Positions 10,414-56,920 of a DNA stretch of 56,920 bases are shown here, one piece after another. A program made the position numbers and the translations under genes. How positions within the stretch are numbered: the first letter of the stretch is position 1; every line of letters starts with the position of its first letter. The notes under the pieces were generated by a model. The model was not told the origin of the DNA and searched no databases. It saw only the letters and a list, made by a program, of their open reading frames with translations. The DNA comes from a virus (taxonomy: Duplodnaviria > Caudoviricetes), in IMG/VR virus record IMGVR_UViG_3300025120_014399, positions 1-56,920 of that record; one strand, written 5' to 3'.

Positions 10414-10851
10414 ATGTCAATACAAAAAAAGATTATAAGGCCTGACTGGGATATCATATGGTCAGACTTTGCAGAAAATATTGCAAATCGCTCAGTTGAC
10501 TCTAAATATAAGGTGGGTGCTGTCGTGGTTAACGCTGAGAACACTCAAGTTCTTTCAATAGGTTATAATGGTGATCAAAAGGGTGGGCCTAACAGAAGAC
10601 AATCTCAAGAAACAGGTAAATCAGGATTCATACACGCAGAGATAAACGCACTTATTAAAATGGATTATAATAATCCGTGCGATAAAAAAATGTATCTTAC
10701 ATTATCACCATGCGAAGTTTGTGCAAAAGCTATAGTTAATGCTGATATTAAAGAAGTAATATTTAATGAATTATATGGAGATGGTTGCCCAGGCATTGAT
10801 ATACTTATAGACGCTGGGATAAAAGTAAGAAAGCATAAGGAGGACATGTGA
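10414..10851 (+). CDS. dCMP deaminase
   Basis: VGAVVV, GYNG, HAEINA, SPCEVC zinc motifs; start at 10414 preferred (GAGGG RBS). Confidence 0.88.
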   Translation: MSIQKKIIRPDWDIIWSDFAENIANRSVDSKYKVGAVVVNAENTQVLSIGYNGDQKGGPNRRQSQETGKSGFIHAEINALIKMDYNNPCDKKMYLTLSPCEVCAKAIVNADIKEVIFNELYGDGCPGIDILIDAGIKVRKHKEDM

Positions 10852-11105
10852 GTTTAAAAAAAGTTTTACACAAGCTTCTTTTAGAAAAAGGTGCAAAAAA
10901 GGCTAGTAGCAACAATATGTATTTTTTTCTTTCGCCTACTACATGCATAGTAGACAAAAAAGGCTATAAATATACAATTAGTAAAGTTACATTAGAACCC
11001 GAAGTATTAATTCAATGTTACAGATCAGAACTAGACCCGGATCAAGGCGATAAATTTATTACAATTACAGCAAAAGAATTTGATGATTATTATAGGTTGG
11101 CATAA
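10848..11105 (+). CDS. hypothetical protein with basic N-terminal tag-like helix
   Basis: MSLKKVLHKLLLE; GTGA overlap. Confidence 0.55.
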   Translation: MSLKKVLHKLLLEKGAKKASSNNMYFFLSPTTCIVDKKGYKYTISKVTLEPEVLIQCYRSELDPDQGDKFITITAKEFDDYYRLA

Positions 11106-11779
11106 TGAATATATTTGACAAAGAAATTAAAAAAGCTATTAAGGATACTATGAGACTAGACGAATCTTTAGTTGCCCAACAAAAGAAATTTGACATTAGA
11201 ACAGACTTTTTAAGTGATTCAAATATTGGTAATCATATAGAGCTTTATGAGACTTATATTAAAGACTTTAATTTAATAAGCGCAAAATTAGATTCTATAG
11301 ACAAAAAAGAAGTTTCATCAAACCACTCTGATTTTAAAAATTTAAAGCATGATGAAACATACAATTTAAATGCTGCGTATCTTCATGAACTTTACTTCTC
11401 AAATATTGGGGATCCAAATTCTCAAATAACAATGGATTCTTTGTCTTACATGCGATTAGCGCGGGATTTTGGTAGTTTTGATAATTGGCAAAATGATTTT
11501 ATTGCATGCTGCCAGAGTTCAAGATGTGGATGGGCAATCACATATTTAAATACATACACACAGACTTTAATGAATTGCGTAATTGATCTCCATTCTCAAA
11601 ATGTACCTACGGGAATGTATCCTGTTATTGTTATGGACTTATGGCAACATGCGTATTATAAAGATTATCTTAAAGATGCTAAAACATATGTTAACGCAAT
11701 GATGAAGCAGTTTAGATGGCCAGTTATTGAAAAAAGAATTATTAAATCAGACAAAATTGCACAGATATTAAGAGGTTAA
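11105..11779 (+). CDS. Fe/Mn superoxide dismutase-like protein with N-terminal extension
   Basis: HELYFSN, RDFGSFDNW, GWA, DLWQHAYY; first His cluster reduced. Confidence 0.8.
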   Translation: MNIFDKEIKKAIKDTMRLDESLVAQQKKFDIRTDFLSDSNIGNHIELYETYIKDFNLISAKLDSIDKKEVSSNHSDFKNLKHDETYNLNAAYLHELYFSNIGDPNSQITMDSLSYMRLARDFGSFDNWQNDFIACCQSSRCGWAITYLNTYTQTLMNCVIDLHSQNVPTGMYPVIVMDLWQHAYYKDYLKDAKTYVNAMMKQFRWPVIEKRIIKSDKIAQILRG

Positions 11780-11780
11780 T

Positions 11781-12416
11781 ATGAAAAGAAAAATATACAA
11801 TTTGCTTTTTGAAGCAGAAGACAATATTGATTCTCCTGAATCTAGTATGATAATGACTTCAACAAAAATGAAAGCACGAAAAGCGCTAGATAGCGTTGAT
11901 GATCAAATCGATGCACTGATCTTAAGATACGAAGCTTCATCGATAAGAGAAGAGGAAGAAGAACGAGCAATTGCTAGCCTGAGTGAAAGATCACTAAGCT
12001 TTCTAGTAGAGCAAGAAGAAGAACCTATCGATGAGCCTGTTGATGATACAGGGGGCGGTGATGAAGCTGTACCTGAAGAAGCACCAGAGCCATCCGGTAG
12101 CGAAAAAATGGAAGTAGACGCCCCGGCTGAAGATCAGCAAATTCCTGATCTAGATCTAGACGCATTTGCAGCAAGAACTGTTAGATTGATAAACAATCAT
12201 AGAAGCCTACTCAGAATGGAAGAAGCTATTGGTAATAGAATTAAACATTTTTTAGACGAAAATTATGGTGATAAATTTGTACAAAGATATCTTGAAATTT
12301 TAGATAATCAGTACGGCTTGTCTTTTGATCAATTCGAAGATACAAGAGGCATAAAAGACGAGCCTTTTGCGACAGGTGCTTTTGCAGGTGGTACGGGTGG
12401 CCTAGGCGGTGCTTAA
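11781..12416 (+). CDS. acidic hypothetical protein, possible head/scaffold protein
   Basis: MKRKIYNLLFE, repeated LxE sites, DSVDDQID, E/D/P-rich linker. Confidence 0.6.
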   Translation: MKRKIYNLLFEAEDNIDSPESSMIMTSTKMKARKALDSVDDQIDALILRYEASSIREEEEERAIASLSERSLSFLVEQEEEPIDEPVDDTGGGDEAVPEEAPEPSGSEKMEVDAPAEDQQIPDLDLDAFAARTVRLINNHRSLLRMEEAIGNRIKHFLDENYGDKFVQRYLEILDNQYGLSFDQFEDTRGIKDEPFATGAFAGGTGGLGGA

Positions 12417-12681
12417 AAATAAAAAGTCGATACATATAAACATAGATCCGGATGATCATGCAAATTTTAAAGTTCAATGTGTCAAAAGAGATCTTTCAAT
12501 GCAAGAGGTATTTGCTGCATTCGCAAAAAGAGTGGGTATGGAATCTTCAGACATGATGAGATTCCTAGACCAGATTGCAAATAACAAGTCAGTTAATTCA
12601 GTTAAAAAGAAATATACTAAGTCTGATATTGATTCAATTTTTAGTATCATACAAGAAGATAATAGTACAGAAGACAGATAG
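12409..12681 (+). CDS. possible ribbon-helix-helix DNA-binding protein
   Basis: KKSIHINID beta-strand followed by helices HANFKVQC...LSMQEVF. Confidence 0.5.
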   Translation: MLKNKKSIHINIDPDDHANFKVQCVKRDLSMQEVFAAFAKRVGMESSDMMRFLDQIANNKSVNSVKKKYTKSDIDSIFSIIQEDNSTEDR

Positions 12682-12685
12682 TTAT
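12678..12685 (+). promoter_or_regulatory. candidate late promoter motif ATAGTTAT
   Basis: Same octamer recurs at 15309, 43535 and 49580 ahead of tagged genes. Confidence 0.4.
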
Positions 12686-12979: not shown

Positions 12980-12983
12980 ACAA

Positions 12984-13397
12984 ATGAAATTAAATAGAAA
13001 TAAATTAAAAAAAATGATTAAAGAATCAGTGCAAAAAATTATTGCTGAATCTGAAATGCAAAAAATGCTAGGCTTGGGTCATCAATTTAGCAATGCTGAG
13101 CTTTATAATGCTGCGATGAATATGCTAAGGCAATATCCAGGCATTAGCGAACATTCAATAGAAGGCGAAATGTTAGAAAAAGCAATAAGAAATAGAATGG
13201 TAAGAGATCAAATAGGCATAAAGAATCCAGACTATGAGAATTTTAGCATGATACTAAACGTCTTGGACAAGGATCGCATGCGAAGAATGAGTTATAGACG
13301 TGGAATTGAAGATGAAATGCGCGATGCTGATCCTACTGGGAGAGAACAAAGGTATGGTGCCATGGCCAGATCAGGCAACACTATAAGACGATTTTAA
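12984..13397 (+). CDS. tagged hypothetical protein (putative internal head protein)
   Basis: ATG 12984: MKLNRNKLKKMIKESVQKIIAE. Confidence 0.65.
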   Translation: MKLNRNKLKKMIKESVQKIIAESEMQKMLGLGHQFSNAELYNAAMNMLRQYPGISEHSIEGEMLEKAIRNRMVRDQIGIKNPDYENFSMILNVLDKDRMRRMSYRRGIEDEMRDADPTGREQRYGAMARSGNTIRRF

Positions 13398-13411: not shown

Positions 13412-13930
13412 ATGAACATATCAAGAAAACAATTAAGACAGATAATCAAAGAAGCTATAGGCGATGCCGACGGTGATGGAACTTCTGACAAAGAAGAGCT
13501 TATAGCAATTGCATCAAACATTAGCGCAGATAATGCACCATCACATGACGCATCGTGGAAGGAATTGCATGCTTTCTTTAACAAAGATTACTTAAGGAAA
13601 AGTAAAGAAGCCAATCAAAAATATCAAAAATGGCACAATAGAGATCGAACACAAGGTAAATATGGTTGGAATATTTCTAAAGAATGGGAAGATCTACTTA
13701 CTTTAATAGATACCAACAATGTACAGCTTGAATTAGAAGATTTAGGAAGTCTTAAAAACTACATGAACGAATTTTTACCAATACAGAAACTTATCACACA
13801 CAAAATTTTAAAATCACCAGAAGAATCCTCTGTTAGAAAAGCTGGGTATTCTTATCTACGACGCATGACCGGTGCTTCAGATCGACATGCTTCAAAAATG
13901 AGCTCAGGCTATTACGGCAAACTCGACTAA
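13412..13930 (+). CDS. tagged hypothetical protein (putative internal head protein)
   Basis: MNISRKQLRQIIKE. Confidence 0.65.
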   Translation: MNISRKQLRQIIKEAIGDADGDGTSDKEELIAIASNISADNAPSHDASWKELHAFFNKDYLRKSKEANQKYQKWHNRDRTQGKYGWNISKEWEDLLTLIDTNNVQLELEDLGSLKNYMNEFLPIQKLITHKILKSPEESSVRKAGYSYLRRMTGASDRHASKMSSGYYGKLD

Positions 13931-21156: not shown

Positions 21157-21615
21157 ATGAAGATAAACGTAGACAGAATGGCTAGACTAGCCGGTTTAAG
21201 CAAAAATTCTAGTAGATCATCTAAATCTTTAAACGAAGGCATGAGTTACGATCACATGGAAGAAATGGATCATGAAAAGCCTATGGAAGAAATGTATGAA
21301 GAAGATCCTATGGAAGAAATGTATGAAGAAGAATCTGATTTCATGGAAGAGATAATTGAAGTTGATGAAGTTGAGTTGGTTCAAGAACTTCGAAGAGCTA
21401 AAAAAATAATGCTCGAGTCTAAAAAAAGAAAAACAAGTCAGAGTTTGCAAGAATTAAAACTTCAAAAAATAATTGAAGAGGAAGTTCAAAATATTTTTGG
21501 TGAAATGGATTTAAACTTAAATTCAGACTGGGTGTATGGATCAAACAAGCCAAAGCGATCAAAAAAAGGTTATTCACATCAAGGTAGCTTCTTAAAAGGC
21601 ATGGGTTTTAAATAA
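21157..21615 (+). CDS. hypothetical protein, prohead-core/scaffold-like
   Basis: RMARLAGL motif, SLNE, MEE repeats, LQELKLQKIIEEEV; GGAGGAG RBS; ATAGTTAG at 21125. Confidence 0.65.
   Translation: MKINVDRMARLAGLSKNSSRSSKSLNEGMSYDHMEEMDHEKPMEEMYEEDPMEEMYEEESDFMEEIIEVDEVELVQELRRAKKIMLESKKRKTSQSLQELKLQKIIEEEVQNIFGEMDLNLNSDWVYGSNKPKRSKKGYSHQGSFLKGMGFK
21280..21332 (+). repeat. in-frame 27-bp-period tandem duplication (PMEEMYEED/E)
   Basis: cctatggaagaaatgtatgaagaaga at 21280 and 21307. Confidence 0.85.
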
Positions 21616-23113: not shown

Positions 23114-24718
23114 ATGCAAAAAAGACATGTTATTTTTGAAGAAGATCTAGCACAAAAGCTTAAACGAGGTGTGGATACTTTGGCAAATGCTGTTAAGACA
23201 ACAATGGGTCCAAAAGGAAAGCTAGTTCTAATTCAGCGTGATCATCATCATCCAACAATTACTAAAGATGGGGTAACAGTTGCTAGATCAATTGAACTTC
23301 CCGATGAATTAGAAAACATGGCGGTTAAGGTTTTAAAAGAAGCTGCGAGTAGAACAGCTGATGACGCCGGCGACGGTACAACCACTTCAACTGTTTTAGC
23401 GCAAGCTATATTTAATGAAGGTCTTAAAATGAAGTCTGCAGGATACCAGATCGACCTTTTAAAAGCCGGTATTGAAAAAGCTGTCAAAGTAGTTATTGAA
23501 GACTTAAGTAAGAATTGCAAAAAAGTTGTTAATGATGATGAGCTAAAACAGGTTGCATTAATATCAGCTAATGGTGAAGAAGAAATTACTAATTTAATTG
23601 TAGAAGCAATCAAAGCTTCTGGTGTCGACGGGTCTGTAATTGTTGAAGAAGCACGCGGTTTTGATTCATCACTTACAATTGTAGATGGATATAGACTAGA
23701 AAGAGGATATTTATCTCCTTATTTTGTATCAAATAAAGAAAAAATGACATGTGAATTCAATAATCCTTTGATTTTCATGGCTGATAGATCATTAAATTCG
23801 ATCAGAGATCTTATGCCTATATTAGAAATGTCTCTCGAGTCTTCTAAGCCTATTGTAATCGTGGCCAACGATATTGAAGGTGAAGCAATGCAAGGGTTGG
23901 TTTTGAATAAAACCAAAGGATCACTTCGTGTATGCGCTATGAAGTCACCTGGTTTTGGTGCATCTAGACATGATCTAATGTTAGATCTTCAAGCTGTTGT
24001 AGGTGGTACAATAGTTGATTCAACATCTGATTTTTCTAAGTTTACAATTGAAGACTTTGGCACAGCAAAAAAAATAATTGTGGGAAGAACTAGTTCTATG
24101 ATTATCGCAAATAGTAAGGATAACGAACAAATAAGCACTAGAATTAATTCAATTAAAGAAAGACAGCTAGAACCTAGTGTTGAAGAGAATGAAAGAGAAC
24201 TGTTAACATACAGACTACAACAACTTTCAGGCGGAATAGCGATACTAAGAGTAGGTGCAGCAACAGAGTCTGAGCTTATAGAAAGATACGATCGTGTTGA
24301 TGATGCTCTGCATGCAACTCGTGCTGCGCTTGAAGAAGGTATACTTCCTGGTGGCGGCATAGCACTAGTTCGTGCACAAAAAATATTATTAACAAAAATT
24401 AAAAAAGAAGAAAATGATGATATTAGGAGTGGAATGATGATTGTAGCTAGGTCTATTGTGGAACCGTTTAAGCAAATCATTAGAAATGGAAAAAACTCAC
24501 CAGACTCATTGCTAAAAGAAGTACAAGATAAGAAAAGTAATGTTGGATATGACACTAGAACAGAAAAGTTTGGAAACATGTTTAAAATAGGCATTCTAGA
24601 TCCATATAAAGTTGTACGTTGTGCCTTAGAAAACGCAGCCTCAGCTGCTGTAATGTTACTTAGCGTAGGGTGTTGTTTGATAGATGTTGAGAACGAAACT
24701 TCGCTAGAGGATAATTAG
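23114..24718 (+). CDS. groL: chaperonin GroEL (Cpn60)
   Basis: TMGPKG, ITKDGVTVA, AGDGTTT, RGYLSPYF, SPGFG, VDDALHATRAALEEGILPGGG, GILDP; no GGM tail. Confidence 0.95.
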   Translation: MQKRHVIFEEDLAQKLKRGVDTLANAVKTTMGPKGKLVLIQRDHHHPTITKDGVTVARSIELPDELENMAVKVLKEAASRTADDAGDGTTTSTVLAQAIFNEGLKMKSAGYQIDLLKAGIEKAVKVVIEDLSKNCKKVVNDDELKQVALISANGEEEITNLIVEAIKASGVDGSVIVEEARGFDSSLTIVDGYRLERGYLSPYFVSNKEKMTCEFNNPLIFMADRSLNSIRDLMPILEMSLESSKPIVIVANDIEGEAMQGLVLNKTKGSLRVCAMKSPGFGASRHDLMLDLQAVVGGTIVDSTSDFSKFTIEDFGTAKKIIVGRTSSMIIANSKDNEQISTRINSIKERQLEPSVEENERELLTYRLQQLSGGIAILRVGAATESELIERYDRVDDALHATRAALEEGILPGGGIALVRAQKILLTKIKKEENDDIRSGMMIVARSIVEPFKQIIRNGKNSPDSLLKEVQDKKSNVGYDTRTEKFGNMFKIGILDPYKVVRCALENAASAAVMLLSVGCCLIDVENETSLEDN

Positions 24719-27604: not shown

Positions 27605-27844
27605 ATGCCTAAATACAAATACAATGTTGGTGACGTTGTTAGACTTAATAACGAAGACATAGGATTAATAGTTGGTTTAACAAATGCATGTGAGTATATG
27701 GCAATTGAATCTAATTTAAAAGAAGAATTACTATCGACATTCATGAAAATTGCCATATACAAAGCTGTAATAAATAGTACAATTTCTTATATTGATGAAT
27801 CAAATATAAAGGAATTAGTATTATGTATCAAAGAAAAATTGTAG
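27605..27844 (+). CDS. small KOW-like protein
   Basis: YNVGDVVRL...IGLIV. Confidence 0.55.
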   Translation: MPKYKYNVGDVVRLNNEDIGLIVGLTNACEYMAIESNLKEELLSTFMKIAIYKAVINSTISYIDESNIKELVLCIKEKL

Positions 27845-28245
27845 CTGTTTCAGGTGGATTTGATCCCATACACGTAGGTCACATTAGAATGATACAAGAA
27901 GCAGCCGAACTTGGCAACGTTGTTGTCATAGCTAATTCAGATGATTGGCTGCTTAGAAAGAAAGGGTACGTCTTTATGAAGTATGAAGAACGTCAAGAAA
28001 TCCTTAAATCAATTAAAGGCGTCGTTAATGTTTTTAAAGCAAGTGATGAAGACAATACAGTATGCAGATCTTTAAAGATTATAAAGCCAGATATATTTGC
28101 AAACGGCGGCGATAGAAAAGAAGGTAACGTTCCTGAATACAAAGTTTGCGAAAATCTAGGCATAGAATTAAGATTTGGAATTGGTGGCGATGATAAACCT
28201 CAGTCATCATCATGGCTAGTAGAAAAAGCAAGAGAGTCTAAATGA
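27823..28245 (+). CDS. cytidylyltransferase/adenylyltransferase (TagD / RfaE-domain II / RibL-like)
   Basis: SGGFDPIHVGH, NSDDWL.RKKG, FANGGDR, QSSSW. Confidence 0.85.
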   Translation: MYQRKIVAVSGGFDPIHVGHIRMIQEAAELGNVVVIANSDDWLLRKKGYVFMKYEERQEILKSIKGVVNVFKASDEDNTVCRSLKIIKPDIFANGGDRKEGNVPEYKVCENLGIELRFGIGGDDKPQSSSWLVEKARESK

Positions 28246-29048
28246 AAACAATTCTATTTGATATGGACGGTACTCTAACACCGGCAAGGGAAAAGATGAC
28301 GCAATTCATGTGCCGGACTTTAGCTAGTCTTCAGAAAGATGGGTATCGTATTGGCATAGTTAGCGGATCAGATATTGATTACATAATTGAACAATGTGAA
28401 GTATTAACAGATATTAATAGATTTGACCATACAGCAATTGATATCTACCCGTGTAATGGTACAAAGCATTATCGTTACACTACACACAGCAATTTAATAA
28501 ACCTATATAAAAATGATTTTAAAAAAAAGGTTGGTAGCGATTTATTTTCAGAACTAGTTTATAGTTTGTTTAGTCTATTAAGCAGTTTCACTAGCAAAAA
28601 TTATAAATATAATATCCCGCTAACTGGCAACTTTATAGATTATCGTGGATCGATGATTAATTTTTCACCAATCGGTAGGAATGCATCCCAAAAAGATCGA
28701 CTAGACTGGATAAAGCTAGACAAAAAGTATGATATCAGAAAAGAATTATTAAATCAGCTAAGAAGTAAATTTAACAATAAAGATATTGAATTTAAACTTG
28801 GTGGTGAAACAAGTATAGACATATGCCCGACAGGTTGGGATAAAACATATGTTTTGAAAAACTTCAAAGACGAAGAAGAAGTTTGGTTTATAGGTGATAG
28901 GTGCGAAGTAAACGGCAATGATAAGGAACTATATGATGCTGTTAAGCTGAGAATTAAAGGAGAGAGCTTTAAAACGACCGGGCCTAGTAAAACTATAGCT
29001 ATTATTAACAATAGGATTCTTCAGCATCCTAATCAACTTAAGAGGTAA
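28242..29048 (+). CDS. phosphomannomutase, HAD-IIB (eukaryotic PMM type)
   Basis: FDMDGTLTPAR, SGSD, R.SMINFSPIGRNA, GGETSID..P.GWDKTY, GDRC...GND. Confidence 0.88.
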   Translation: MKTILFDMDGTLTPAREKMTQFMCRTLASLQKDGYRIGIVSGSDIDYIIEQCEVLTDINRFDHTAIDIYPCNGTKHYRYTTHSNLINLYKNDFKKKVGSDLFSELVYSLFSLLSSFTSKNYKYNIPLTGNFIDYRGSMINFSPIGRNASQKDRLDWIKLDKKYDIRKELLNQLRSKFNNKDIEFKLGGETSIDICPTGWDKTYVLKNFKDEEEVWFIGDRCEVNGNDKELYDAVKLRIKGESFKTTGPSKTIAIINNRILQHPNQLKR

Positions 29049-38853: not shown

Positions 38854-39711
38854 ATGTCTGCCATTACTGGTCAAACGCCTATGATCGCTATAGATGAAGA
38901 TTGCAGAATCTGGGCAAAGCTTGAAACACATAATAGAACCGGTTCTGTCAAAGACAGAATGATTGAATATATATGTGACTTAGCGGTTGCTAACGGATCC
39001 ATAGAGCCTGGAAAAACAATACTAGTCGAAGCAACCAGCGGCAATACTGGAATTGCATTGGCATCTTATGCTGCATCGATGAACTGTCCCTGTAGAATTA
39101 TCATGCCCGAAAATATGTCCCAACAAAGAAAAGACATGATGTTGGCATTTGGTGCAACAATAATGGAAACAGGTTATAATAATTTCAAGGAAGCAATCAG
39201 TATAAGGGATAATTTGTTGTCTAGCTCTAAAAAATATTTTTCACCAATGCAATTTAGTAATCCATTGAACATCCAGTGTCATTATGAAACAACAGCACCT
39301 GAAATACATGGGCATGTCATCACAGAAATGAGACCTTTAAAGTGGGAAGCTTTTATTCACGGTGCCGGAACAGGCGGAACTATGATGGGGATAAAAAACT
39401 ACATAGATAAGGTAGGGTTAGACGTAAAGTGCGTACTGACAACACCCGAAGAATCTGCAGAAACTCATGGTATTCAAGGTATAAATGACGGCGGCGACTA
39501 TCTTCTAGACAAAAGCTTAATGGATGATATTATTTCTATCAAAACTGAAGATGCTATCATACGAATGAAAAAGTTTTGGCAGGACACAGGAATATTAATA
39601 GGCATAAGTAGTGGTGCAAACATTTTAGCTTCAGAAAGATACTTAAAAAAGTACAATCCATCAGGAATTATAATTACAATACTTTGTGATAGAGGAGAAA
39701 GATACTTATGA
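38854..39711 (+). CDS. PLP-dependent cysteine synthase family protein (CysK/CysM)
   Basis: KLE..N.TGSVKDR, EATSGNTGI, GAGTGGT, HGIQGI, GISSGAN, DRGERYL. Confidence 0.9.
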   Translation: MSAITGQTPMIAIDEDCRIWAKLETHNRTGSVKDRMIEYICDLAVANGSIEPGKTILVEATSGNTGIALASYAASMNCPCRIIMPENMSQQRKDMMLAFGATIMETGYNNFKEAISIRDNLLSSSKKYFSPMQFSNPLNIQCHYETTAPEIHGHVITEMRPLKWEAFIHGAGTGGTMMGIKNYIDKVGLDVKCVLTTPEESAETHGIQGINDGGDYLLDKSLMDDIISIKTEDAIIRMKKFWQDTGILIGISSGANILASERYLKKYNPSGIIITILCDRGERYL

Positions 39712-40697
39712 AACTTTATGAAGCAACATACGGTAATATTCCTATAATAGCTGTCTATAACGGTAGATTTCATCCCATGGGACGTCATCACGTACAAACT
39801 TATGAAAGAATAGTTCAGATATTCGGAAAAGACAACACCTATGTGACTACTGCAGATAAGGTAAAACTTCCTAAAAGCCCGCTAAGTTTTTTAGAAAAAG
39901 AGAAGATTGCAATTGCACATGGAATCAATCCGGATAAATTTGTTTTTTGTAGATCTGGATACCAGCCTAATGAATTGCATGCGAAAATCCAAAGAGAGAG
40001 GTCAGTCACAGCAGATGGGTATGTGATAGTTTTCGTAGTTGGAGAAAAAGATATGCGTGATGATCCTAGATTTAGTGATTTAGGCGGCATGACAAAACCG
40101 ACCAAGCGAAACCCAGTTCCGAGACCAAAATATTTAAAAAGCTATGACCCGCAAAACTTACTACCAGCATCAGAGCATGGTTACGTATACACAATACCCA
40201 CAGTTGATATAGTACTACCTGATGGGCGACAAAGTTCGGGTACTAACTTAAGAACATTTCTTTATAATTCTACACCTGAAGAGTTTAAAGCTGCGATGGA
40301 TTTTTTCGATCAAGAGCTATACGACTTACTTAAGGTTAAATTTGATCCTGTAAATCTTTACCCGGGTATTGCTATCAATGAATTAAAAAAAAGACCAAAA
40401 AAGGATACACAGGAGTATTCTACATATCTTGAAGAGCTAATGGACGAATTAAAATATATAAAGTCAGGATATGAGTCTAGAAAAAAGACGGGCCGGCGAT
40501 ATAGAAAAGAAGCAAGCAAAATACAAGATGCATACTCAGAGCTCCGGCGTCTAAGAAACAAAAATAATAAAATACTTAATGCACAAAAAATAAATGAAGT
40601 AATTAATCAGAACAACTATGTCGCAAACATAGAAATAAGTAATGATACAAACTTTAACAAAGACTCAATTAAGAACTTTTTAAAAAAGTTTAAATAG
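39708..40697 (+). CDS. HIGH-superfamily nucleotidyltransferase-like protein
   Basis: YNGRFHPMGRHH, SPLSF.EK, VGEKD, SGTNLR. Confidence 0.65.
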   Translation: MKLYEATYGNIPIIAVYNGRFHPMGRHHVQTYERIVQIFGKDNTYVTTADKVKLPKSPLSFLEKEKIAIAHGINPDKFVFCRSGYQPNELHAKIQRERSVTADGYVIVFVVGEKDMRDDPRFSDLGGMTKPTKRNPVPRPKYLKSYDPQNLLPASEHGYVYTIPTVDIVLPDGRQSSGTNLRTFLYNSTPEEFKAAMDFFDQELYDLLKVKFDPVNLYPGIAINELKKRPKKDTQEYSTYLEELMDELKYIKSGYESRKKTGRRYRKEASKIQDAYSELRRLRNKNNKILNAQKINEVINQNNYVANIEISNDTNFNKDSIKNFLKKFK

Positions 40698-43559: not shown

Positions 43560-43796
43560 ATGGAAAAAAAGAATTCAATTAAGGACTTACATCTAGATAA
43601 GCCGACTAGTCATGGTGGCTGGCCAGATGGACATTCTGGGAGTTATACAGACCCAGACACACCGGTAAACAAACAAATTGCTAAGTATCTCGAGGATATG
43701 GGCTTAATTGATGACTCAAATCCTCGAGCTCGTTTAAGCGAGTCCAAAATTAGAAGTTTAATTAGAGAAGAAATAATTAGAATTTTGTCTGAATAG
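43560..43796 (+). CDS. small protein with C-terminal tag
   Basis: ATG 43560 after GAGG; LSESKIRSLIREEIIRILSE; ATAGTTAT at 43535. Confidence 0.65.
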   Translation: MEKKNSIKDLHLDKPTSHGGWPDGHSGSYTDPDTPVNKQIAKYLEDMGLIDDSNPRARLSESKIRSLIREEIIRILSE

Positions 43797-44397: not shown

Positions 44398-46611
44398 ATG
44401 AAAATTTCTAGAAAACAGCTTAGATATCATTTAAATAAAATGTTAAACGAAACGGATGTAACGCTAGATATACTAAGCACAGATTCAAAAGGTGTAAGTT
44501 TGTTAAGCGGGTTAGTTGGTAGATACGATGGAACCGGTGGTTCCGGCCCCAGCAATCGCCGCGGCCAAGATCCAAATGCACCCATAGTGTCGCCAAAAAA
44601 TCCAAAGTTTTCAGATGCTGCAGGCGTGCAAAATGTTGACACAAGATTACCTGTATACACACTTTCTAGACAAAGTAACCCGGGCCAATCTCAATTAGCA
44701 TATGATCAAATGGTAGGTTCGATCGGTAATGGTGAAACACCGGGGTTTCCAGGGGAATACATAACTGCTCAATTGCTTAGTCACGCCGGCCCCTCCTTTG
44801 TAGATAAAATGTCCTGGCCAAACTGGATCGCTTCTCCTCCTGCAATCGGCAATTTCAATACCCCCGAAGGCCTGCTAAATATAGCTTCAACACAATTTCC
44901 TGCTGCTGACGTATATATTGGGAAAAAAGACATTAACGTGACAATGTCTACAAAGGTCGTAGCTAGTAATGAATTAAACTTTTCTGATGACTTTATTGCT
45001 ACTTCTGTAAAAATGTCAGGAAACTCTTCATCCCGGGAAAAAGCTCCATCAATAGGTTTCGCAGGAACAAGAAAAAAAGCAGGTCTACAACCACATCATT
45101 TTAGTGGTGATAATCTAGTAACACTTCCGCTTTTTTTTGGTGCAAAATGGGCAATAACAAATTATCCAGTAGCAACTAATCCATATAAAAAGACAAGTAA
45201 GAAGGGATCCAATTCTTTGGCAGCGTTTTTAATATCCAAAGGTATTAATAAAATAACAATCAAGGTTGCAGGAATAAACATTTGTGCAATACCCTACTTT
45301 AGTGCAGAAACCCGACCGACTGATCCGATTCTTTTTGGAATATACGCAACAGGAGTTAAAACTCATACTATTGTAGCTGATGGTACGGATAAGTTTAAAT
45401 ATGATTCATCATCAGATGCAGAATCTTTAAATTCAACAGGCATTGGAAAGAACCCACATGAGCTAATAGGATTAATTAATGCAGGATCAATTTCTTCATC
45501 CGCTGTTTCAACGGCAGGTGGCAATCCGGCAGCAATGACTCAGAATACTTTAACGTTTGCTGAAGACCCAGCATATCAATCTGCAGTTAATACATTAACA
45601 CGCTCTATTTTTATTCTTAATAATGCAAAACAGTCAATAAAAGAGTATACGAAATCATCCGCATTGACATCAAAAATAAATATTAAACCTTTGACACTAG
45701 ACGAATCTGACAATTATAAGTTTTTAGTATTGCAGATGATCAAGGCCGGCCAAGCTGCTCAAATCCTCAAAGATGTCTTAAGCAGCAGTACAATTTTGAC
45801 AGCTACCGAAGTTCAAAAGGCAACACTCAATTCAGCAATGACGCAACTAGGTAAAATAAAATCTTCTGTTGGTCAGTCAACTTCCCTAGAAACTCAAATA
45901 TCAGAAATGATCAATGTTTTTAAAAAATTAGAAGAAAATTACAAAATAATAAAAGAAACAGCGGAAAAAGCTAATAAATCGATCACCGATAATCCGACGG
46001 ATCCTGCCTCAATTGCAGTAATACAAGATGAAGTTAGTCTATATAATAAGATATTAGCGCAAATAGAATCAATTAAAACAAATGCTAATGCAATTTATGA
46101 TTTTATAGATTTTTTAATTGGCACGAATGTACCGCTTCAAGGAGCTTCAACATTAACCTCCCGTCAATATGAAAAGTCAAGAAAGGCATTCAAAGTGCTT
46201 ACAAGGCTATCCGAGCGCATGATGAGTTCAGCTATTAAAGTAATGCCAGGTTTAAATGACTTTGAAGCAGCCTTAATAATTGCAGCCAACTTTGCAATGC
46301 AATCGTTAACAATTCTAAATGAAATGACAATAGAAATTAAAGAATTTTTAGAATATTCTGCTCCAGTCACAGATTTAAAATTGACAATAGATGATTCAAC
46401 TTTGAATGACAAAAGCGAAGACTCTGAAGAAGAATTATCAAACGTTTATCAGCTTCAAACAAAGACTACAAACAAAAAAGTTCCTTTCGGACAAGAAGAT
46501 AGAACAGCTGCAGCTCTAAATAAAAATAGTAATGAGCCTATTCTTAAACAGGTTGCTGAGACAAAAACATACATGTCTATCCTTCGTGAGTTAATGAAAT
46601 ATTCCAAGTAG
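44398..46611 (+). CDS. large protein tagged at both ends, possible PD-(D/E)xK-like domain
   Basis: ATG 44398 MKISRKQLRYHLNKMLNE; GFPGE, FPAAD...TSVK; C-terminal VAETKTYMSILRE. Confidence 0.65.
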   Translation: MKISRKQLRYHLNKMLNETDVTLDILSTDSKGVSLLSGLVGRYDGTGGSGPSNRRGQDPNAPIVSPKNPKFSDAAGVQNVDTRLPVYTLSRQSNPGQSQLAYDQMVGSIGNGETPGFPGEYITAQLLSHAGPSFVDKMSWPNWIASPPAIGNFNTPEGLLNIASTQFPAADVYIGKKDINVTMSTKVVASNELNFSDDFIATSVKMSGNSSSREKAPSIGFAGTRKKAGLQPHHFSGDNLVTLPLFFGAKWAITNYPVATNPYKKTSKKGSNSLAAFLISKGINKITIKVAGINICAIPYFSAETRPTDPILFGIYATGVKTHTIVADGTDKFKYDSSSDAESLNSTGIGKNPHELIGLINAGSISSSAVSTAGGNPAAMTQNTLTFAEDPAYQSAVNTLTRSIFILNNAKQSIKEYTKSSALTSKINIKPLTLDESDNYKFLVLQMIKAGQAAQILKDVLSSSTILTATEVQKATLNSAMTQLGKIKSSVGQSTSLETQISEMINVFKKLEENYKIIKETAEKANKSITDNPTDPASIAVIQDEVSLYNKILAQIESIKTNANAIYDFIDFLIGTNVPLQGASTLTSRQYEKSRKAFKVLTRLSERMMSSAIKVMPGLNDFEAALIIAANFAMQSLTILNEMTIEIKEFLEYSAPVTDLKLTIDDSTLNDKSEDSEEELSNVYQLQTKTTNKKVPFGQEDRTAAALNKNSNEPILKQVAETKTYMSILRELMKYSK

Positions 46612-49653: not shown

Positions 49654-51186
49654 ATGGGCGGAATAGCAGGACACATGAATCATGTCTATGATAATCTTAA
49701 CTTGACATTTTCAGGATTACTAGATATATTAACACAGGCAGCAGCCGGCAGCTTAAATCCCACAGAAAAAGTTGACGGTCAAAATCTTTATTTTACATAT
49801 GACTTTAGAGATAATCAAGTAAAGTTTGCACGTCGTCCGGCCGAAGCAGCATCTGGTGGGATTACTAAAGAAGCACTTAATTCAGAATTTATTAGAAAAA
49901 GAGATAACAGTACAAACCCGGAAGGATATCAAAGTGTTGTTGATGCTTTTTATTTTGGAATGACTGCAATAGAGATGGGAATTAATTCAGCACAGGAACA
50001 AACAATATTATCTTTGTTTGAACGTGCAAAAGCAGCTGATGTTTCTGATGACACACCTTATGATACTCCGACTGTTTTTATTAATTGTGAAATTATGTAT
50101 TCAGAAAATAGAAATATGATTATGTATGATGGTGACTTTATTGTATTTCATAAATTTGACTTACTAAATGAAAATCTTGAATCATTGTCAAAAGAAGAAC
50201 TTTTAAAGTTAGATAGTTCAATGAGGGAAAAATTTAATTCGCTCGTTGCAGAAGTTGAAAAAAGCGAACAGACTGTCGCAGGACGTCAATGGAAAGTCGT
50301 AGGACCTCAAACAAGGAAATTAAGAAATCTTGACAGTTCATTTATTGAAGAATCGAGAACAAAAATTCAAAATATTGTCCAGAAATATAATATGACTTTG
50401 GATAATAAATTTTCTGACTTTTTAGCTGCGGGTGTTGCTGAGTATGTAAAGGAAGCAGGTTTTACTGTACTAGTTCCAAAAGATGTTGTTACTATTTTAC
50501 AGAAAGCTGTAATTGACCCGGCCGGGTTTTCAAACAACCCAGGTAGGTTAGGAAATACTTTGTTGCCCCAAGGACCAAGAAAAGGGAGTGCAAGGAAAAC
50601 AATAATAAATAACTATATAGGTGGGTCTAAATCAGATGCAGGTTTGCTTTCTAACTTTCTTGCAAAAGGAAAAGCTTTTGCCTTAATGTCTCGCATCTTA
50701 GAGCCATTTGCACAAATTACTCCAGGTTTGACTGCTTCACTTATGAGAGACGTTCCTTCTGCTTTTATGAAAGATAGTGATAAAGGAACAAAAATATTTA
50801 GAAGAACAGTCGAGTTAGCAATACAACATTTAGAAAACATGTTCCGGAACGCGGATCCCGCTGATGAAAAAATTAACAGTCTTAAGAATCGATATAACAA
50901 ACAAATGGCCAGGTTACAGTCTGTTGACAATATTTCTTCAGCAATGGAAGGCGTTGTTTTTGAATATCCGCCAATGTCAAATCAATTTTATAAATTTACA
51001 GGAGGTTTTGCAGCTGCAAATCAGATACTTGGTTATTTGGGCTGGGACGTCAAAGATGATCTAACTCAACAAGCCGCATCAGAAATTAATGCAGAAGTAT
51101 TAAATATTTCTGAAGCAAAACTTAAAAGAATGATAAGAGAATCAATAGCAAAAACTTACCTTGCGATGCTACCGAGATATAAATAG
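49654..51186 (+). CDS. covalent nucleotidyltransferase (RNA/DNA ligase-like) phage protein with C-terminal tag
   Basis: TEKVDGQN (motif I), NCEIM, IVFH, EGVVF, YKFTGGFA; C-terminal ISEAKLKRMIRESI. Confidence 0.65.
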   Translation: MGGIAGHMNHVYDNLNLTFSGLLDILTQAAAGSLNPTEKVDGQNLYFTYDFRDNQVKFARRPAEAASGGITKEALNSEFIRKRDNSTNPEGYQSVVDAFYFGMTAIEMGINSAQEQTILSLFERAKAADVSDDTPYDTPTVFINCEIMYSENRNMIMYDGDFIVFHKFDLLNENLESLSKEELLKLDSSMREKFNSLVAEVEKSEQTVAGRQWKVVGPQTRKLRNLDSSFIEESRTKIQNIVQKYNMTLDNKFSDFLAAGVAEYVKEAGFTVLVPKDVVTILQKAVIDPAGFSNNPGRLGNTLLPQGPRKGSARKTIINNYIGGSKSDAGLLSNFLAKGKAFALMSRILEPFAQITPGLTASLMRDVPSAFMKDSDKGTKIFRRTVELAIQHLENMFRNADPADEKINSLKNRYNKQMARLQSVDNISSAMEGVVFEYPPMSNQFYKFTGGFAAANQILGYLGWDVKDDLTQQAASEINAEVLNISEAKLKRMIRESIAKTYLAMLPRYK

Positions 51187-51492
51187 TTATATACTATATG
51201 TAATAGTTTTGCCGGTATTATCGTTTTGAAATTGCCGCTTAGCTATCGTAAGGCCTCTGGAATCAGTAATCATTCCGGCCTGTGATCCAAAAAACTCTTT
51301 TGAGATTGGTTTCTCTTGGTTTCCGTCATCATGTGTTATTAAATGAACTGTTATCTTATTGCCCATCTCTTCATATGAAAATGTGTATGTCCCATACCCA
51401 GATCCGGCATTATACGGCCGACTAGTAGCTTCTAATAGACTTTTAACTTCTCTTAATATGATCTTTCTTAATTGTGATCTAGAAACTTGCAT
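51187..51492 (-). CDS. small tagged hypothetical protein
   Basis: MQVSRSQLRKIILREVKSLLE; GAGG RBS. Confidence 0.7.
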   Translation of the reverse strand: MQVSRSQLRKIILREVKSLLEATSRPYNAGSGYGTYTFSYEEMGNKITVHLITHDDGNQEKPISKEFFGSQAGMITDSRGLTIAKRQFQNDNTGKTITYSI

Positions 51493-52817: not shown

Positions 52818-53727
52818 ACTACTAATAGCTTTGTTTGCATCATCATGCTCATCAGATGTGTCTATTATGAAAAGATACGATGAAGAAAACAAAGACACAA
52901 ACGAAGTTGTTGTTGTAGAAGAAGACAACACAGAGGCTTCAAGTGAACCTGATGATTCTCCAACCAATGAACCAACGGCTGAACCATCATCAGAAATGTC
53001 TGAGCTGACCATTGGTTACGGCGAAATATATTTTAGACAAATAGCATGCCCTCCTTGCGTAGGTGCTTCTTCAGAATTTGATATCACTGCAACTCTAAAA
53101 CTTCATCAGCCAACTAGTGGTGACTACACAGAATATCTGCAAGAACCCGGCACATGTACAACAAATCTGATTCAGACTCATGTAAGCTCTCAACCTCTGA
53201 CAACTAGTCAGTCGGCAGCATTTAATGGGATGACGTTAAACCCTAACGGGCCCGGAGAATGGTATAATGGTTTTATATATGAGTATCAATATGAACGCAA
53301 TGCCAGCTATTCAGTAACTTCAGAGCACGGTACTATTAATAATGCATTCACAACAATTGAAGGTTTTGACGATATTCAACCCTACACTTTACTGTGGGTC
53401 GATCCTAGCTACGCATATGATGCAGTTATTAGCAAGTCGGGCACTAATTTTTCATGGCAACCTGTTGTAAATAACAGCTTATTCGAGATAATTATAGCTG
53501 TGTATTCATCAGACGGATCACAATTTTTAGGTGCAGTCAGCTGTCTAGAAGAAGATCAAGGCTATATGCATATACCTGGAAGTTATTTTCAGATGTATCC
53601 AACATGGTCAATAGCAGCAGTTCACTTAATTAGACATAAAATAGATAGAGTACCAGCCCAACAATTTAATGGTTACTTTCAGAGTCATATGATTTGGGAA
53701 GTGGTAGGAACAGGACATATAGAATAA
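52807..53727 (+). CDS. putative lipoprotein
   Basis: MKNKLLIALFASS-C; EPS/EPT-rich linker; Cys-containing beta-rich domain. Confidence 0.65.
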   Translation: MKNKLLIALFASSCSSDVSIMKRYDEENKDTNEVVVVEEDNTEASSEPDDSPTNEPTAEPSSEMSELTIGYGEIYFRQIACPPCVGASSEFDITATLKLHQPTSGDYTEYLQEPGTCTTNLIQTHVSSQPLTTSQSAAFNGMTLNPNGPGEWYNGFIYEYQYERNASYSVTSEHGTINNAFTTIEGFDDIQPYTLLWVDPSYAYDAVISKSGTNFSWQPVVNNSLFEIIIAVYSSDGSQFLGAVSCLEEDQGYMHIPGSYFQMYPTWSIAAVHLIRHKIDRVPAQQFNGYFQSHMIWEVVGTGHIE

Positions 53728-53930
53728 TGGCAACAAATATAAAAGTAAAAGTAAGAAAAGGCGAAGATGTTAATAAGGCAATCCGCAGATTTAAAAAACT
53801 GTATGAAGCAGAAGGAGTGTTAAAAGATATCAAGCGAAAAAGATACTACATGAAGCCCAGCGAGGCAAAGAAGTATAAAAGAGTTATGGCAGCTAAAAAA
53901 AGAAGAAAAGCAGCAAGAAGAAGAAAATAA
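53727..53930 (+). CDS. rpsU: 30S ribosomal protein bS21
   Basis: VKVRKGEDVNKAIRRFKK...GVLKD...YYMKPSE.K; ATG overlaps upstream TAA. Confidence 0.92.
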   Translation: MATNIKVKVRKGEDVNKAIRRFKKLYEAEGVLKDIKRKRYYMKPSEAKKYKRVMAAKKRRKAARRRK

Positions 53931-53967: not shown

Positions 53968-54429
53968 ATGAAAATTTCTAGAAAACGTCTTAAATCATTA
54001 ATTGAAAACTATCTTTTTGAACAGGAAGAAGGGCCTGTGTCTAAAGAGATTAGTAAAGACAATAAAAAAGTCAAGGTAAAACCTATGACTAAAGAAGTTG
54101 GACCTAATCATTCTAATCTATCTATTAATAAAACAACGGGGGAAGTGACTTTAAAAGTTACTGGGGGAGAAGTAGAAAAAGAATCATCATTAAAACCATC
54201 AGACATTAAAGGCGAAAGTCAAGCTAAGGCTGATTTTGTTAATTTGGCTTCAGGTTATATTCAGGACCTACGGCGTACTAGTGAAAAAGATGCAGAAGAA
54301 TTTTTAAACAATCTAAAGCCTTTTATTGATTTAACAGACGCAACAGACTACAAGCCTTCAATGGCAAAATTTGATGCTGAATTTAATATTAAAAATCCTG
54401 ATGATATAAATAATTCTAAAATATCCTAA
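53968..54429 (+). CDS. tagged hypothetical protein
   Basis: MKISRKRLKSLIENYLFE. Confidence 0.65.
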   Translation: MKISRKRLKSLIENYLFEQEEGPVSKEISKDNKKVKVKPMTKEVGPNHSNLSINKTTGEVTLKVTGGEVEKESSLKPSDIKGESQAKADFVNLASGYIQDLRRTSEKDAEEFLNNLKPFIDLTDATDYKPSMAKFDAEFNIKNPDDINNSKIS

Positions 54430-54698: not shown

Positions 54699-54699
54699 T
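54671..54699 (+). promoter_or_regulatory. promoter TGTAAA-N17-TATAAT
   Basis: TGTAAA 54671-54676, TATAAT 54694-54699. Confidence 0.55.
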
Positions 54700-54717
54700 A
54701 CTTCATAGGAGGTATTT

Positions 54718-55232: not shown

Positions 55233-55548
55233 ATCTGAAATAGATAAACTTTTTAAAACCGACAGTAACATTATTTTAGACTTTTACGCTGATTGGTGTG
55301 GTCCGTGCAAAGTCATATCTAAAGCTTTTCAAGAAATAAAAGATGAGAATATATTTAAAAATATAACATTGATTAAAATTGATATTGCAAAGTTTACTAA
55401 TCTAGCTCATGTCTATAACGTAAAGTCACTCCCAACAGTTATATACACTTCAGACGCGTCAGGTGAAATTAACGTCTTAAAAACAAAAGTTGGTTCTATG
55501 AACAAAAAAGATCTGATTGAAATGATTGGGAGAGTTTATGACAAGTAG
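55207..55548 (+). CDS. trxA: thioredoxin
   Basis: DFYADWCGPCK, VKSLPT. Confidence 0.92.
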   Translation: MKIVIPKYESEIDKLFKTDSNIILDFYADWCGPCKVISKAFQEIKDENIFKNITLIKIDIAKFTNLAHVYNVKSLPTVIYTSDASGEINVLKTKVGSMNKKDLIEMIGRVYDK

Positions 55549-55849
55549 ATGGAAAGAAGTTGGTTCATGGAATGTAGGCACAGCTGATGGAGGAACTGAA
55601 AAATATTCTTTATCTGAGAATAAAGATACAGGAAATTTCAGAATTAAAAATGAATTTGGGAATATAACAATAGACATGGAACGCATGTCCGGACACAAGT
55701 TTCTTAAAAAAGTTTTAAAAAAAATGGAAGAGATAATATCACCTGGTGTCGACTATGATGATGACCTTTGGGCAAAATCTTTGGGTTTAGACTTCGATGG
55801 TGATGATAGCAATGATAATGACTATAACGACTGTGACCATACAGACTAA
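55538..55849 (+). CDS. hypothetical protein with acidic tail
   Basis: ATG 55538 after GGGAG. Confidence 0.55.
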   Translation: MTSRWKEVGSWNVGTADGGTEKYSLSENKDTGNFRIKNEFGNITIDMERMSGHKFLKKVLKKMEEIISPGVDYDDDLWAKSLGLDFDGDDSNDNDYNDCDHTD

Positions 55850-55860
55850 GGGGATAAAAA

Positions 55861-56445
55861 TTGGGTAATATAACAACAGCAAAAGCAATTACGTTTTTAG
55901 ACATCGAGACAACGCACCTAGACGCTTCAAAAAGCGCTATTCTTTCAATCTCAATAATTACTGATTGGGATGGCGGGAAGCAAGATGTATGGACGACAAA
56001 GATAAAGCCAAAAGATATTGAAATGCAGTTTGCTTCTAAGGAAGCACTCGAAGTCTGTATGTATAGCGAAGAAGAATGGGCAGACGCACCGAGCTTTTCA
56101 GAAGTCGCACCTGAAATTGCAAAGCGTCTTATGTGGGGCCCACTGGTTGCACATAATATACAGTTTGACGTAGGTCATATTAGATCTGTCTTTAAAAGGT
56201 ACGGGTATAGAGAGGCACAACGGAACGAAAGAGTTGAAAGCAACAACAAGCTTTATAAAATTGGATATCCTCAAATAGATACATGCGCATTAGCCTACCT
56301 TTTCTTGCCAACTGAGCGCCAAAACTTAGATACACTTAGATCGCATTTCAAGATACCGGCAGGTAGATCACACTCCGCGGATACAGATGCTGAAGATTGC
56401 CGGCATGTTTTTTATAAGATACTGGAATTTATATCACCGGGTTAA
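55861..56445 (+). CDS. DEDDh 3'-5' exonuclease (DnaQ/epsilon-like)
   Basis: LDIETT, AHNIQFD, IDT, HSADTD. Confidence 0.88.
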   Translation: MGNITTAKAITFLDIETTHLDASKSAILSISIITDWDGGKQDVWTTKIKPKDIEMQFASKEALEVCMYSEEEWADAPSFSEVAPEIAKRLMWGPLVAHNIQFDVGHIRSVFKRYGYREAQRNERVESNNKLYKIGYPQIDTCALAYLFLPTERQNLDTLRSHFKIPAGRSHSADTDAEDCRHVFYKILEFISPG

Positions 56446-56484
56446 TATGTATAGATATAATATTAATCAGGAAGAGTATTAAAT

Positions 56485-56920
56485 ATGTTAGTTAGTAGAA
56501 GAAAAATAAAAAAGCTAATCATTTCAGCTATCTTAGAACAAATTAATCTAAAAAATCATACTGAATGGTCGCTATTAAAAGAAAACATATCCGCAGCTGA
56601 CGGAGAGGCTCTTATAAAAGCTTCACAAAAAGGTGAAAAAGTTTTTAAAAAATTGTTTCGTAAGCTGGCCAGGAAATATCATCCCGATAAACTCCCCGGA
56701 CCTCGGGGTCTTAATGCATTTCAGCAGCTGAATAACGCCAATATCATCGCCAATAAGTCCTTCGACAACAACCGTACGCCCCCCCGATCATCTATCCGGA
56801 ATGGGATAAAAAACGGCCGCATGGATCCCAAAGCGCTAAAGAAAGCGCAAGAGGCATTCACCAAAGCAGCAGCTGAAAAAGCTAAAAAAGAAGCAGCTGA
56901 AAAAGCAGCTAAAGCAGCAG
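56485..56920 (+). CDS. tagged J-domain protein, 3'-truncated (not in ORF track)
   Basis: MLVSRRKIKKLIISAILE...FKKLFRKLARKYHPDK...AFQQLNNA...AAEKA repeats; open to window end. Confidence 0.7.
   Translation, partial: MLVSRRKIKKLIISAILEQINLKNHTEWSLLKENISAADGEALIKASQKGEKVFKKLFRKLARKYHPDKLPGPRGLNAFQQLNNANIIANKSFDNNRTPPRSSIRNGIKNGRMDPKALKKAQEAFTKAAAEKAKKEAAEKAAKAA

Follow-up and report, generated by a model that had tools for sequence, protein, structure and literature searches.

A portable basic peptide on unrelated proteins of uncultured phages, a candidate leader for loading proteins into the head

Introduction

What is one short basic peptide doing at the ends of otherwise unrelated proteins of a single uncultured virus? 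The question is raised by IMG/VR virus record IMGVR_UViG_3300025120_014399 (Caudoviricetes), a virus record of 56,920 bases that we analysed at its full length and refer to as the window. A sequence-only reading of the window had reported a "basic amphipathic" tag at the termini of 15-20 proteins and had likened it to the capsid-targeting sequence (CTS) of phage T4. As described in passages of PMC9026906, the T4 protease gp21 cuts after L/I-X-E; these passages and others in PMC5694885 further describe that T4 internal proteins (IPs) carry a 10-residue N-terminal CTS, which is sufficient for loading and then removed, that Alt is also processed at its C-terminus, and that the IPs are poorly conserved among relatives. 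Here, we report that the tag of the window is real, portable and, as far as seen, restricted to viruses, and we weigh what it may be for.

Results

The motif M-K-[ILV]-[STN]-R-K-Q-L-[RK]-K-[IL]-I-x-E opens 11 of the 91 open reading frames (ORFs) of the window. With a leave-one-out position-specific scoring matrix (PSSM) built on the window tags, all 91 N-termini and 17,038 internal positions were scored: the 11 tagged N-termini reached 8.6-32.3 bits, exceeding 99.97% of the internal positions, and the next-best N-terminus reached 2.2 bits. Three of the four best internal positions lie at the C-termini of proteins 33471, 49654 and 43560 (named by the positions of their genes); the fourth is a J-domain helix in the 56485 protein, which we took as a chance match. 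A hidden Markov model (HMM A2), built mostly from other contigs, gave 12.0-32.5 bits for the N-terminal copies, 13.4 and 9.8 bits for C-terminal copies, and 1.8 bits for the best unrelated match. The C-terminal tag is real in three window proteins (33471, 49654 and 43560), the first of which is tagged at both ends, and tagged proteins total 13, eleven at the N-terminus and two at the C-terminus only. The copies are the following (lengths in amino acids, aa; scores in bits):

12984-13043, plus strand: N-terminal tag MKLNRNKLKKMIKESV of a 137-aa protein (gene 12984-13397); PSSM 21.2, HMM 18.9
13412-13471, plus strand: N-terminal tag MNISRKQLRQIIKEAI of a 172-aa protein (gene 13412-13930); PSSM 26.0, HMM 32.5
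33471-33530, plus strand: N-terminal tag MKIKKNKLKKVISKSL, GTG start, of a 711-aa protein (gene 33471-35606); PSSM 11.6, HMM 14.8
35553-35603, plus strand: C-terminal tag KLTRSHIRKLLRELINQ after I-A-E, aa 695-711 of the same 711-aa protein; PSSM 15.6
35603-35662, plus strand: N-terminal tag MNISKHKFRKLIFENI of a 295-aa protein (gene 35603-36490); PSSM 13.3, HMM 20.1
36493-36552, plus strand: N-terminal tag MKINRKQLRKIIIEAM of a 260-aa protein (gene 36493-37275); PSSM 32.3, HMM 28.5
37304-37363, plus strand: N-terminal tag MKITRKQLRKLLLKEF of a 162-aa protein (gene 37304-37792); PSSM 25.1, HMM 25.5
38266-38325, plus strand: N-terminal tag MKLNRKLLKKLIQEEI of a 195-aa protein (gene 38266-38853); PSSM 20.7, HMM 19.3
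43731-43793, plus strand: C-terminal tag RLSE-SKIRSLIREEIIRILSE, aa 58-78 of a 78-aa protein (gene 43560-43796); PSSM 9.4, HMM 9.8
44398-44457, plus strand: N-terminal tag MKISRKQLRYHLNKML of a 737-aa orphan protein (gene 44398-46611); PSSM 17.3, HMM 21.1
51103-51156, plus strand: C-terminal tag NISEAKLKRMIRESIAKT, aa 484-501 of a 510-aa protein (gene 49654-51186); PSSM 10.3, HMM 13.4
51433-51492, minus strand: N-terminal tag MQVSRSQLRKIILREV of a 101-aa protein (gene 51187-51492); PSSM 16.7, HMM 24.2
53968-54027, plus strand: N-terminal tag MKISRKRLKSLIENYL of a 153-aa protein (gene 53968-54429); PSSM 13.8, HMM 20.3
56485-56544, plus strand: N-terminal tag MLVSRRKIKKLIISAI of a J-domain-like protein running off the window end; PSSM 8.6, HMM 12.0
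21457-21492, plus strand: weak, partial internal copy KLQKIIEEEVQN in a 152-aa protein (gene 21157-21615); HMM 7.3

Profile scoring, by which the sequence-only reading had proposed to define the motif, cleanly separated this tagged set from the other window proteins and lowered the count of 15-20 to 13. Eleven of the 12 N-terminal cases regarded as clear were upheld and the one at 19771 was lost (PSSM -0.7 bits), as were all the copies regarded as weaker (11105 scores -0.8 bits; 10848, 11781, 15341 and 48637 lie outside the 40 best HMM matches). Among the five proposed C-terminal copies, those of 33471, 43560 and 49654 stood, while those of 14329 and 44398 gained no support from PSSM or HMM. 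The tag is indeed basic, with a net charge of +3.1 over its first 14 residues, yet its amphipathicity is not significant, the helical moment of 0.33 lying within the range of shuffled sequences (0.27 +/- 0.14). We describe it as a basic peptide, about 14-22 residues long and probably helical, with a flexible linker behind it. The bodies behind it are unrelated, as had been claimed (BLASTP among 21 proteins gave no pair below E = 0.049), and none of the Pfam-annotated replication or metabolic enzymes of the window is tagged; nearest to being exceptions are the 56485 protein, which is J-domain-like, and the 49654 protein, which weakly resembles an RNA ligase.

The window has a guanine-plus-cytosine (GC) content of 33-37% and carries nearly all of its genes on the plus strand. 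Its Pfam matches comprise replication and nucleotide enzymes (DnaE-type Pol III alpha, helicase, dUTPase, thymidine kinase, dCMP deaminase and ThyX) as well as ClpS, a GroEL-type chaperonin, a sigma-70 family factor, Hsp20, NUDIX, a PALP enzyme, ribosomal protein S21 and thioredoxin; the Pfam scan of window proteins found no head or tail gene, and neither tRNA genes nor Rfam families were found in the window. The closest cultured DnaE is only 26-27% identical to that of the window. IMG/VR holds 32 related loci, including G001 (202 kb, DnaE 83%) and G002 (200 kb, DnaE 59%). Since the window lacks head genes and is collinear with positions 110-181 kb of G001, it is a replication and metabolism fragment of a phage of at least 200 kb. 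The C-terminal tag of the 43560 protein is kept in the orthologues of G001 and of a further relative, G005, and that of the 49654 protein is kept in G001 and present in altered form in G005; in both families the C-terminal tag begins [IL]-[ST]-E. The partial internal copy of the 21157 protein scores 11.7 bits in its G001 orthologue.

The tag is not confined to the window. Its HMM has 27 matches in G001, 12 in G005, and 4, 3 and 2 in more distant relatives, and a degenerate DNA pattern of the motif hits at least 143 stretches of IMG/VR. From these stretches 80 loci were taken as a census, which gave 121 matches and 120 tags for analysis. Nearly all matches coincide with an ORF start; as many as five tagged genes occur within 2 kb, and the median protein length is 106 aa. 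The census consensus is MKITK[SR]QL[KR][QR]IIKEE[LI]..[LV]L.E, followed by a G/P/D-rich stretch; the search pattern itself fixed I12 and E14, and positions that it left free are also conserved (K5 in 81, K/R13 in 92 and E15 in 95 of the 120 tags). A profile of 125 N-termini matched 11,671 protein clusters at E <= 0.001 among 1.84 billion representatives searched. Among the best 150 clusters by this profile, 136 hold two copies of the tag and 14 hold three, with a median spacing of 129 residues.

In cellular genomes (596 Gb), the same DNA pattern hits 68 stretches, with arrays on a few contigs of metagenome-assembled genomes only and single matches in named isolates. Arrays were seen on contig NHDW01000006.1 (306 kb; loci L232, L256, L257, L270-L273 and L281) and at loci of PBIO01000025.1, labelled Methylococcaceae TMED69 and Halobacteriovorax SP2999 and bearing about 24 and 12 tag matches, respectively; these are probably misbinned phage contigs. 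The tag was not found in five cultured marine T4-like phages, and among the nearest phages by capsid protein it occurs only in the uncultured 484-kb LR756508 (10 matches). By the same protein, the nearest phages in culture are ones that infect Flavobacterium and Microcystis. A tblastn search of GenBank phages with a 24-aa tag gave no match, which probably reflects the short, low-complexity query and is not counted as absence. The tag is apparently undescribed before: neither its strings nor such a tag in marine or uncultured phages were found in the literature, with subscription journals and supplements lying outside the search.

As the window has no head genes, we infer the prohead protease of its phage from relatives. 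Locating this protease was a check proposed in the sequence-only reading; in relatives it is a Peptidase_S77 in a T4-type head module. G001 carries this module in T4 order: terminase, an ORF presumed to be the portal from its position alone (it spans a locus boundary), Peptidase_S77 (98.5 bits against a cut-off of 27), an acidic scaffold-like protein of 490 aa, a Gp23-type capsid protein, neck genes and tail sheath. The G001 protease shares with T4 gp21 the motifs GE[LC][DN]HP and G[IV]SSRG, whose His and Ser we take to be catalytic, and its N-terminus contains [VI]-L-x-E, like LIE-9 of T4. The maturation site of T4 gp23, F-L-T-E65|AEIGG, aligns with QVLRE|AN in G001, QVLKE|SN in G002 and QLLKE|AS in LR756508. 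The G001 scaffold contains 29 [LIV]xE sites against 7.8 expected, but its composition is rich in Glu and Leu. In LR756508 (156480-158204) and G033 (39126-40643), the S77 domain lies in an ORF of 566-576 aa and is matched in two HMM pieces, suggesting that the protease has an insertion or is fused. N-termini that look tag-like by eye, namely those of the capsid protein, of the G001 ORFs 42446 and 43027 and of the MKKSELKNIIKE family, scored -0.4 to 6.7 bits and were dropped as evidence.

Several observations link the tag to this head module. By eye, [LI]-x-E is found in all 11 N-terminal window tags, ending at residues 13-23, against a proteome background of 0.016 per residue, and a second [LIV]-x-E follows at residue 21 or 22 in 48 of the 120 census tags. 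S77 is present in 21 of 34 tag-bearing contigs (4/5, 4/4 and 13/25), among them every one of the five with a completeness of at least 79%; in the 25 tag-bearing fragments it was found 13 times against 6.2 expected if unlinked (P = 0.002). In G020 and G028, the gene immediately before that of the protease, at the position of T4 genes 67/68, encodes a tagged protein of about 107 aa; tagged genes are also found at a distance of two genes from the protease gene in G036 and of about 2.6 kb in G018. Eight tagged genes stand between the capsid and neck genes of G001. In LR756508, 9 of the 24 genes around the S77 ORF are tagged and 5 of the 10 tag matches fall within 4 kb of it (P = 7e-7).

The promoters of G001 point in a similar direction. 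For none of its approximately 45 listed sigma-70-type sites is the nearest downstream gene a tagged one, and an ATAATTA box, which occurs 14 times in intergenic DNA against 1.8 expected, precedes the scaffold gene, two sheath genes and six or seven tagged genes. We regard these promoter classes as suggestive in G001, and the window promoters as uninformative. At 183-202 kb of G001 (loci L043 and L044), about 13 small untagged genes each follow a TG.TATACTA site with an ACAACCA box 10-15 nucleotides (nt) downstream, probably a class of early promoters.

The 33471 protein, tagged at both ends, belongs to a family of 14 homologue clusters of 34-87% identity; the C-terminal tag is present in 14/14, and the N-terminal tag in all 13 homologues that have an N-terminus. 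The Glu before the C-terminal tag (E693) is invariant, within [IV]-[AS]-E in most members, and the tag itself ends in ...IL without a Glu site. Because the Glu precedes the C-terminal tag and is absent inside it, the candidate cut site in this family always falls between tag and body. In an AlphaFold2 (AF2) model of the 711-aa protein (predicted local distance difference test, pLDDT, 70.6; predicted template modelling score 0.49), each tag forms an isolated helix (residues 5-15 and 698-710) next to a linker whose pLDDT falls below 50. No function emerged for the family from a profile against the PDB, from Pfam on all members or from the AF2 model, and Foldseek with this model gave no match at E <= 0.001 in the PDB and BFVD. 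One homologue of 1,203 aa (P0003), a natural fusion, reads as a body of the 711-aa type, I-A-E, a tag and then another body, about 490 aa long; in the window, the stop codon of 33471 coincides with the start of the next gene, 35603. Among the multi-tag ORFs, 125 of 167 internal tag copies keep their Met, and many of these ORFs may therefore be fused neighbours.

The tagged bodies are almost devoid of known domains. Pfam cut-offs are reached by no N-tagged window protein (0/11) and by none of 37 tagged proteins from G001, G002 and G005, and among 150 multi-tag proteins only four have matches (EF-hand twice, PG_binding_1 once, and one on the tag itself). PHROGs match 2 of the 13 tagged window proteins, with families of unknown function only, and a sequence search of the PDB gave no match for three tagged proteins or for profile A3. 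The 56485 protein matches DnaJ at 26.1 bits, below the cut-off of 27.8, with its HPD motif present. No close relatives of the 36493 protein were found by tblastn against GenBank phages or in IMG/VR, the 44398 protein is an orphan for which no relatives were found, and the 13412 protein meets only clusters of viral hypothetical proteins in the ESM Atlas, all below 0.9. In the latter protein (gene 13412-13930), a GDADGDGTSD loop resembling an EF-hand calcium site directly follows the tag; the EF-hand matches among multi-tag proteins are in P0141 and P0163, and one Atlas neighbour cluster of the 13412 protein is 54% EF-hand_5.

Bodies range from about 70 to 737 aa and in isoelectric point (pI) from 4.5 to 10.3, and they are hydrophilic: transmembrane-like segments occur in 0/13, 1/25, 1/103 and 3/150 tagged proteins, against 6/78 and 18/220 untagged ones. 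A homologue in G001 exists for 2 of 11 tagged window genes, against 49 of 78 untagged (Fisher P = 0.008), and BLAST sorts 52 tagged bodies of four genomes into 45 clusters. Positional counterparts share 55-70% identity in the tag and 14-37% in the body, as illustrated by the 53968 protein and its G001 counterpart (60% and 16%); the body of the 37304 protein has tagged homologues in G001. Altogether, tagged bodies turn over fast, as T4 internal proteins do.

Discussion

We consider it about an even chance that the tag is a prohead-loading leader of the T4 CTS type, removed at [L/I]-x-E by the S77 protease. In the mechanism that we propose, the tag would attach a soluble protein to the scaffolding core while the prohead assembles, the S77 protease, like gp21, would then cut after the Glu of [L/I]-x-E between tag and body, and the freed body would be retained in the head and probably ejected with the DNA. 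The T4 analogy drawn in the sequence-only reading is partly supported by an S77 protease in a T4-type head module, an aligned maturation site in the capsid protein, clustering of tags at the protease gene and a Glu between tag and body; because the window has no head genes, it rests on the gene context of relatives. The Pfam searches do not show the cargo to be enzymatic: none of the 37 tagged proteins of relatives reaches a cut-off, and only 4/150 multi-tag proteins have any match.

A number of observations weigh against a head-loading leader. All 13 tagged genes of the window sit among replication and metabolic genes, and in G007, which is 96% complete, the protease gene is about 70 kb away from the nearest tag and about 120 kb from the main array. 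In T4, the IP genes are likewise not known to belong to the head module. Roughly 9-12% of all genes are tagged (11/91; about 24/268), and two tagged bodies exceed 700 aa, which would be much for a capsid to hold. None of the tagged genes of the window is preceded by the ATAATTA box, and 56485 has a -10-like TATAATA box. S77 occurs without the tag in the five cultured marine T4-like phages, Mel-JY01, RM378 and LR756511. ClpP is present in all five large tag-bearing contigs, and because it co-occurs with the tag too, co-occurrence alone cannot single out the head protease. At the level of the peptide, E14 could simply stabilise a helix, and the Glu is followed by E, A, S, N, F or V, which are not all small. 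For the capsid protein and the conserved proteins of the head module, the N-termini are tag-like only by eye (6.7 bits at most). Glu stands upstream of 117 of 167 internal tag copies against a background of 23%, which is confounded by in-frame Shine-Dalgarno codons and was dropped as support for cleavage. Finally, every tag match whose source was seen in searches with a consensus-type protein query is of environmental origin, and no cultured carrier was found.

Could the peptide then direct its carriers to a destination apart from the capsid? It would in that case impose a common fate or location in the infected cell on a set of rapidly changing proteins. A helix that docks to a non-capsid hub, be it a ClpP/ClpS degron or adaptor signal, a handle for chaperones (GroEL, Hsp20, J-protein) or a motif for a host target, would fit the presence of ClpP in every large tag-bearing contig, the tagged gene directly after ClpP in G001, the remoteness of most tagged genes of the window and G007 from head genes, and the company of ClpS, GroEL, Hsp20 and a tagged J-domain-like protein in the window. 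The lineage thus has a proteostasis set of its own, at positions 380-715 for ClpS, 23114-24718 for the GroEL-type chaperonin, 32523-32951 for Hsp20 and 56485-56919 for the J-domain-like protein, and 86891-87391 of G001 for ClpP. However, ClpP is found as well in the tag-less Mel-JY01 and LR756511, only that one gene ties the tag to ClpP by position, whereas tags flank S77 in G018, G020, G028 and LR756508, and a degron predicts no conserved Glu between tag and body at both termini; an M-K start is not known to be a ClpS N-degron. We hold a docking hub to be unlikely.

The tag might also be no address at all, but the remnant of common descent in one fast-evolving paralogue family in tandem arrays, its helix kept for folding or self-association, for example oligomerisation. 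Arrays of up to five tagged genes in 2 kb, natural ORFs with two or three tags that retain Met (125/167) and resemble fused neighbours, positional counterparts that preserve the tag and not the body, and the scarcity of known domains would all be expected of such a family, yet the same tag is C-terminal in three conserved, unrelated families, is carried by a J-domain-like and a PG_binding_1 protein, precedes bodies of about 70-737 aa and pI 4.5-10.3, and forms a helix detached from the body in the 711-aa model. C-terminal use in unrelated families, these two carriers and the range of body size and pI argue for portability rather than common descent, and we regard a paralogue family as quite improbable. 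Least credible of all is that the motif is a by-product of a nucleotide element at gene starts (a translation enhancer, promoter or recombination site). It is common for highly expressed genes to have an A-rich start, or AAA in second position. Synonymous codons differ, however, at the conserved residues of the window tags; codon use at conserved positions varies freely (six codons for Leu8, three for Ile12, eight for Thr/Ser4) in host loci of 30-55% GC, and C-terminal and internal copies exist. Since the codons vary, the repeat is selected at the protein and not the DNA level, and a nucleotide-level artefact is excluded.

Compared with the CTS of IPI-III and Alt, as it appears in the passages cited above, the tag is likewise a short N-terminal leader on unrelated, poorly conserved proteins, with L/I-x-E and with S77 in a T4-type head module, and the 711-aa protein tagged at both ends recalls Alt with its C-terminal propeptide. 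Unlike the CTS so described, the tag has 14-22 rather than 10 residues and an apparently different sequence. It further differs in being carried by about 10% of the genes rather than by some 4-5 proteins, and in occurring in tandem arrays, in multi-tag ORFs and in 11,671 clusters of uncultured phages; T4 IPs are basic, whereas the tagged bodies are often acidic and the present system is known from sequence alone. In the giant phages phiKZ, 201phi2-1 and SPN3US, many head proteins are cut after Glu by a gp21-related protease, according to passages of PMC5694885 and PMC9026906. The same passages present SPN3US gp53 and gp54 as diverged paralogues with conserved N-termini and propose that propeptides target the prohead; as far as they describe them, these propeptides are unlike the tag in being mostly longer than 100 residues, with an S/A-x-E motif and no single portable consensus. 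Those passages also report virion proteomes for the three giant phages, whereas the tag-bearing phages are represented by sequences only. Returning to the tag itself, the principle is known from T4; new are its sequence, scale, arrays, dual-terminus use and breadth. Encapsulin cargo-loading peptides are likewise short, terminal and portable, and load cargo into a shell of the HK97 fold; they differ from the proposed leader in being usually C-terminal, in not being removed by a protease, in binding the shell and in serving a cellular nanocompartment.

If the tag is a head-loading leader, sequence alone would flag thousands of proteins in the viral dark matter of the ocean as candidates for delivery in the virion, proteins that would act in the first seconds of infection and likely include anti-defence functions. 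The CTS principle would extend from a few proteins of one model phage to a clade-wide code, and a defined peptide would be at hand for loading foreign proteins into large capsids, although a protein-delivery tool made from the tag is speculation at this stage. Bolder, and in our view less likely than not, is the possibility that one universal, swappable peptide, used at either terminus or as a polyprotein joint, puts about a tenth of the genes of a large clade of uncultured ocean jumbo phages with T4-type heads into the virion for co-injection; this would be by far the largest repertoire of capsid-delivered effectors known, a hypervariable one with hardly any known domains. Even with a non-capsid address, a 20-residue label on about 10% of the genes, kept while the rest changes beyond recognition, is a strong constraint.

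Some neighbouring genes deserve mention. The ribosomal protein S21 gene (53694-53930; Pfam 53.7 bits) lies directly upstream of the tagged gene 53968, and the same order of S21 and tagged gene is seen in G001 (174346, then 174633). A long NUDIX ORF (37671-38234) overlaps the tagged ORF 37304-37792 by about 120 nt; because the two are separate genes in G001, the NUDIX start probably lies further downstream. The window also carries sugar-nucleotide genes (7791-8792 and 27823-29048), encoding an NAD-dependent epimerase/dehydratase, a cytidylyltransferase-like protein and a eukaryotic-type phosphomannomutase.

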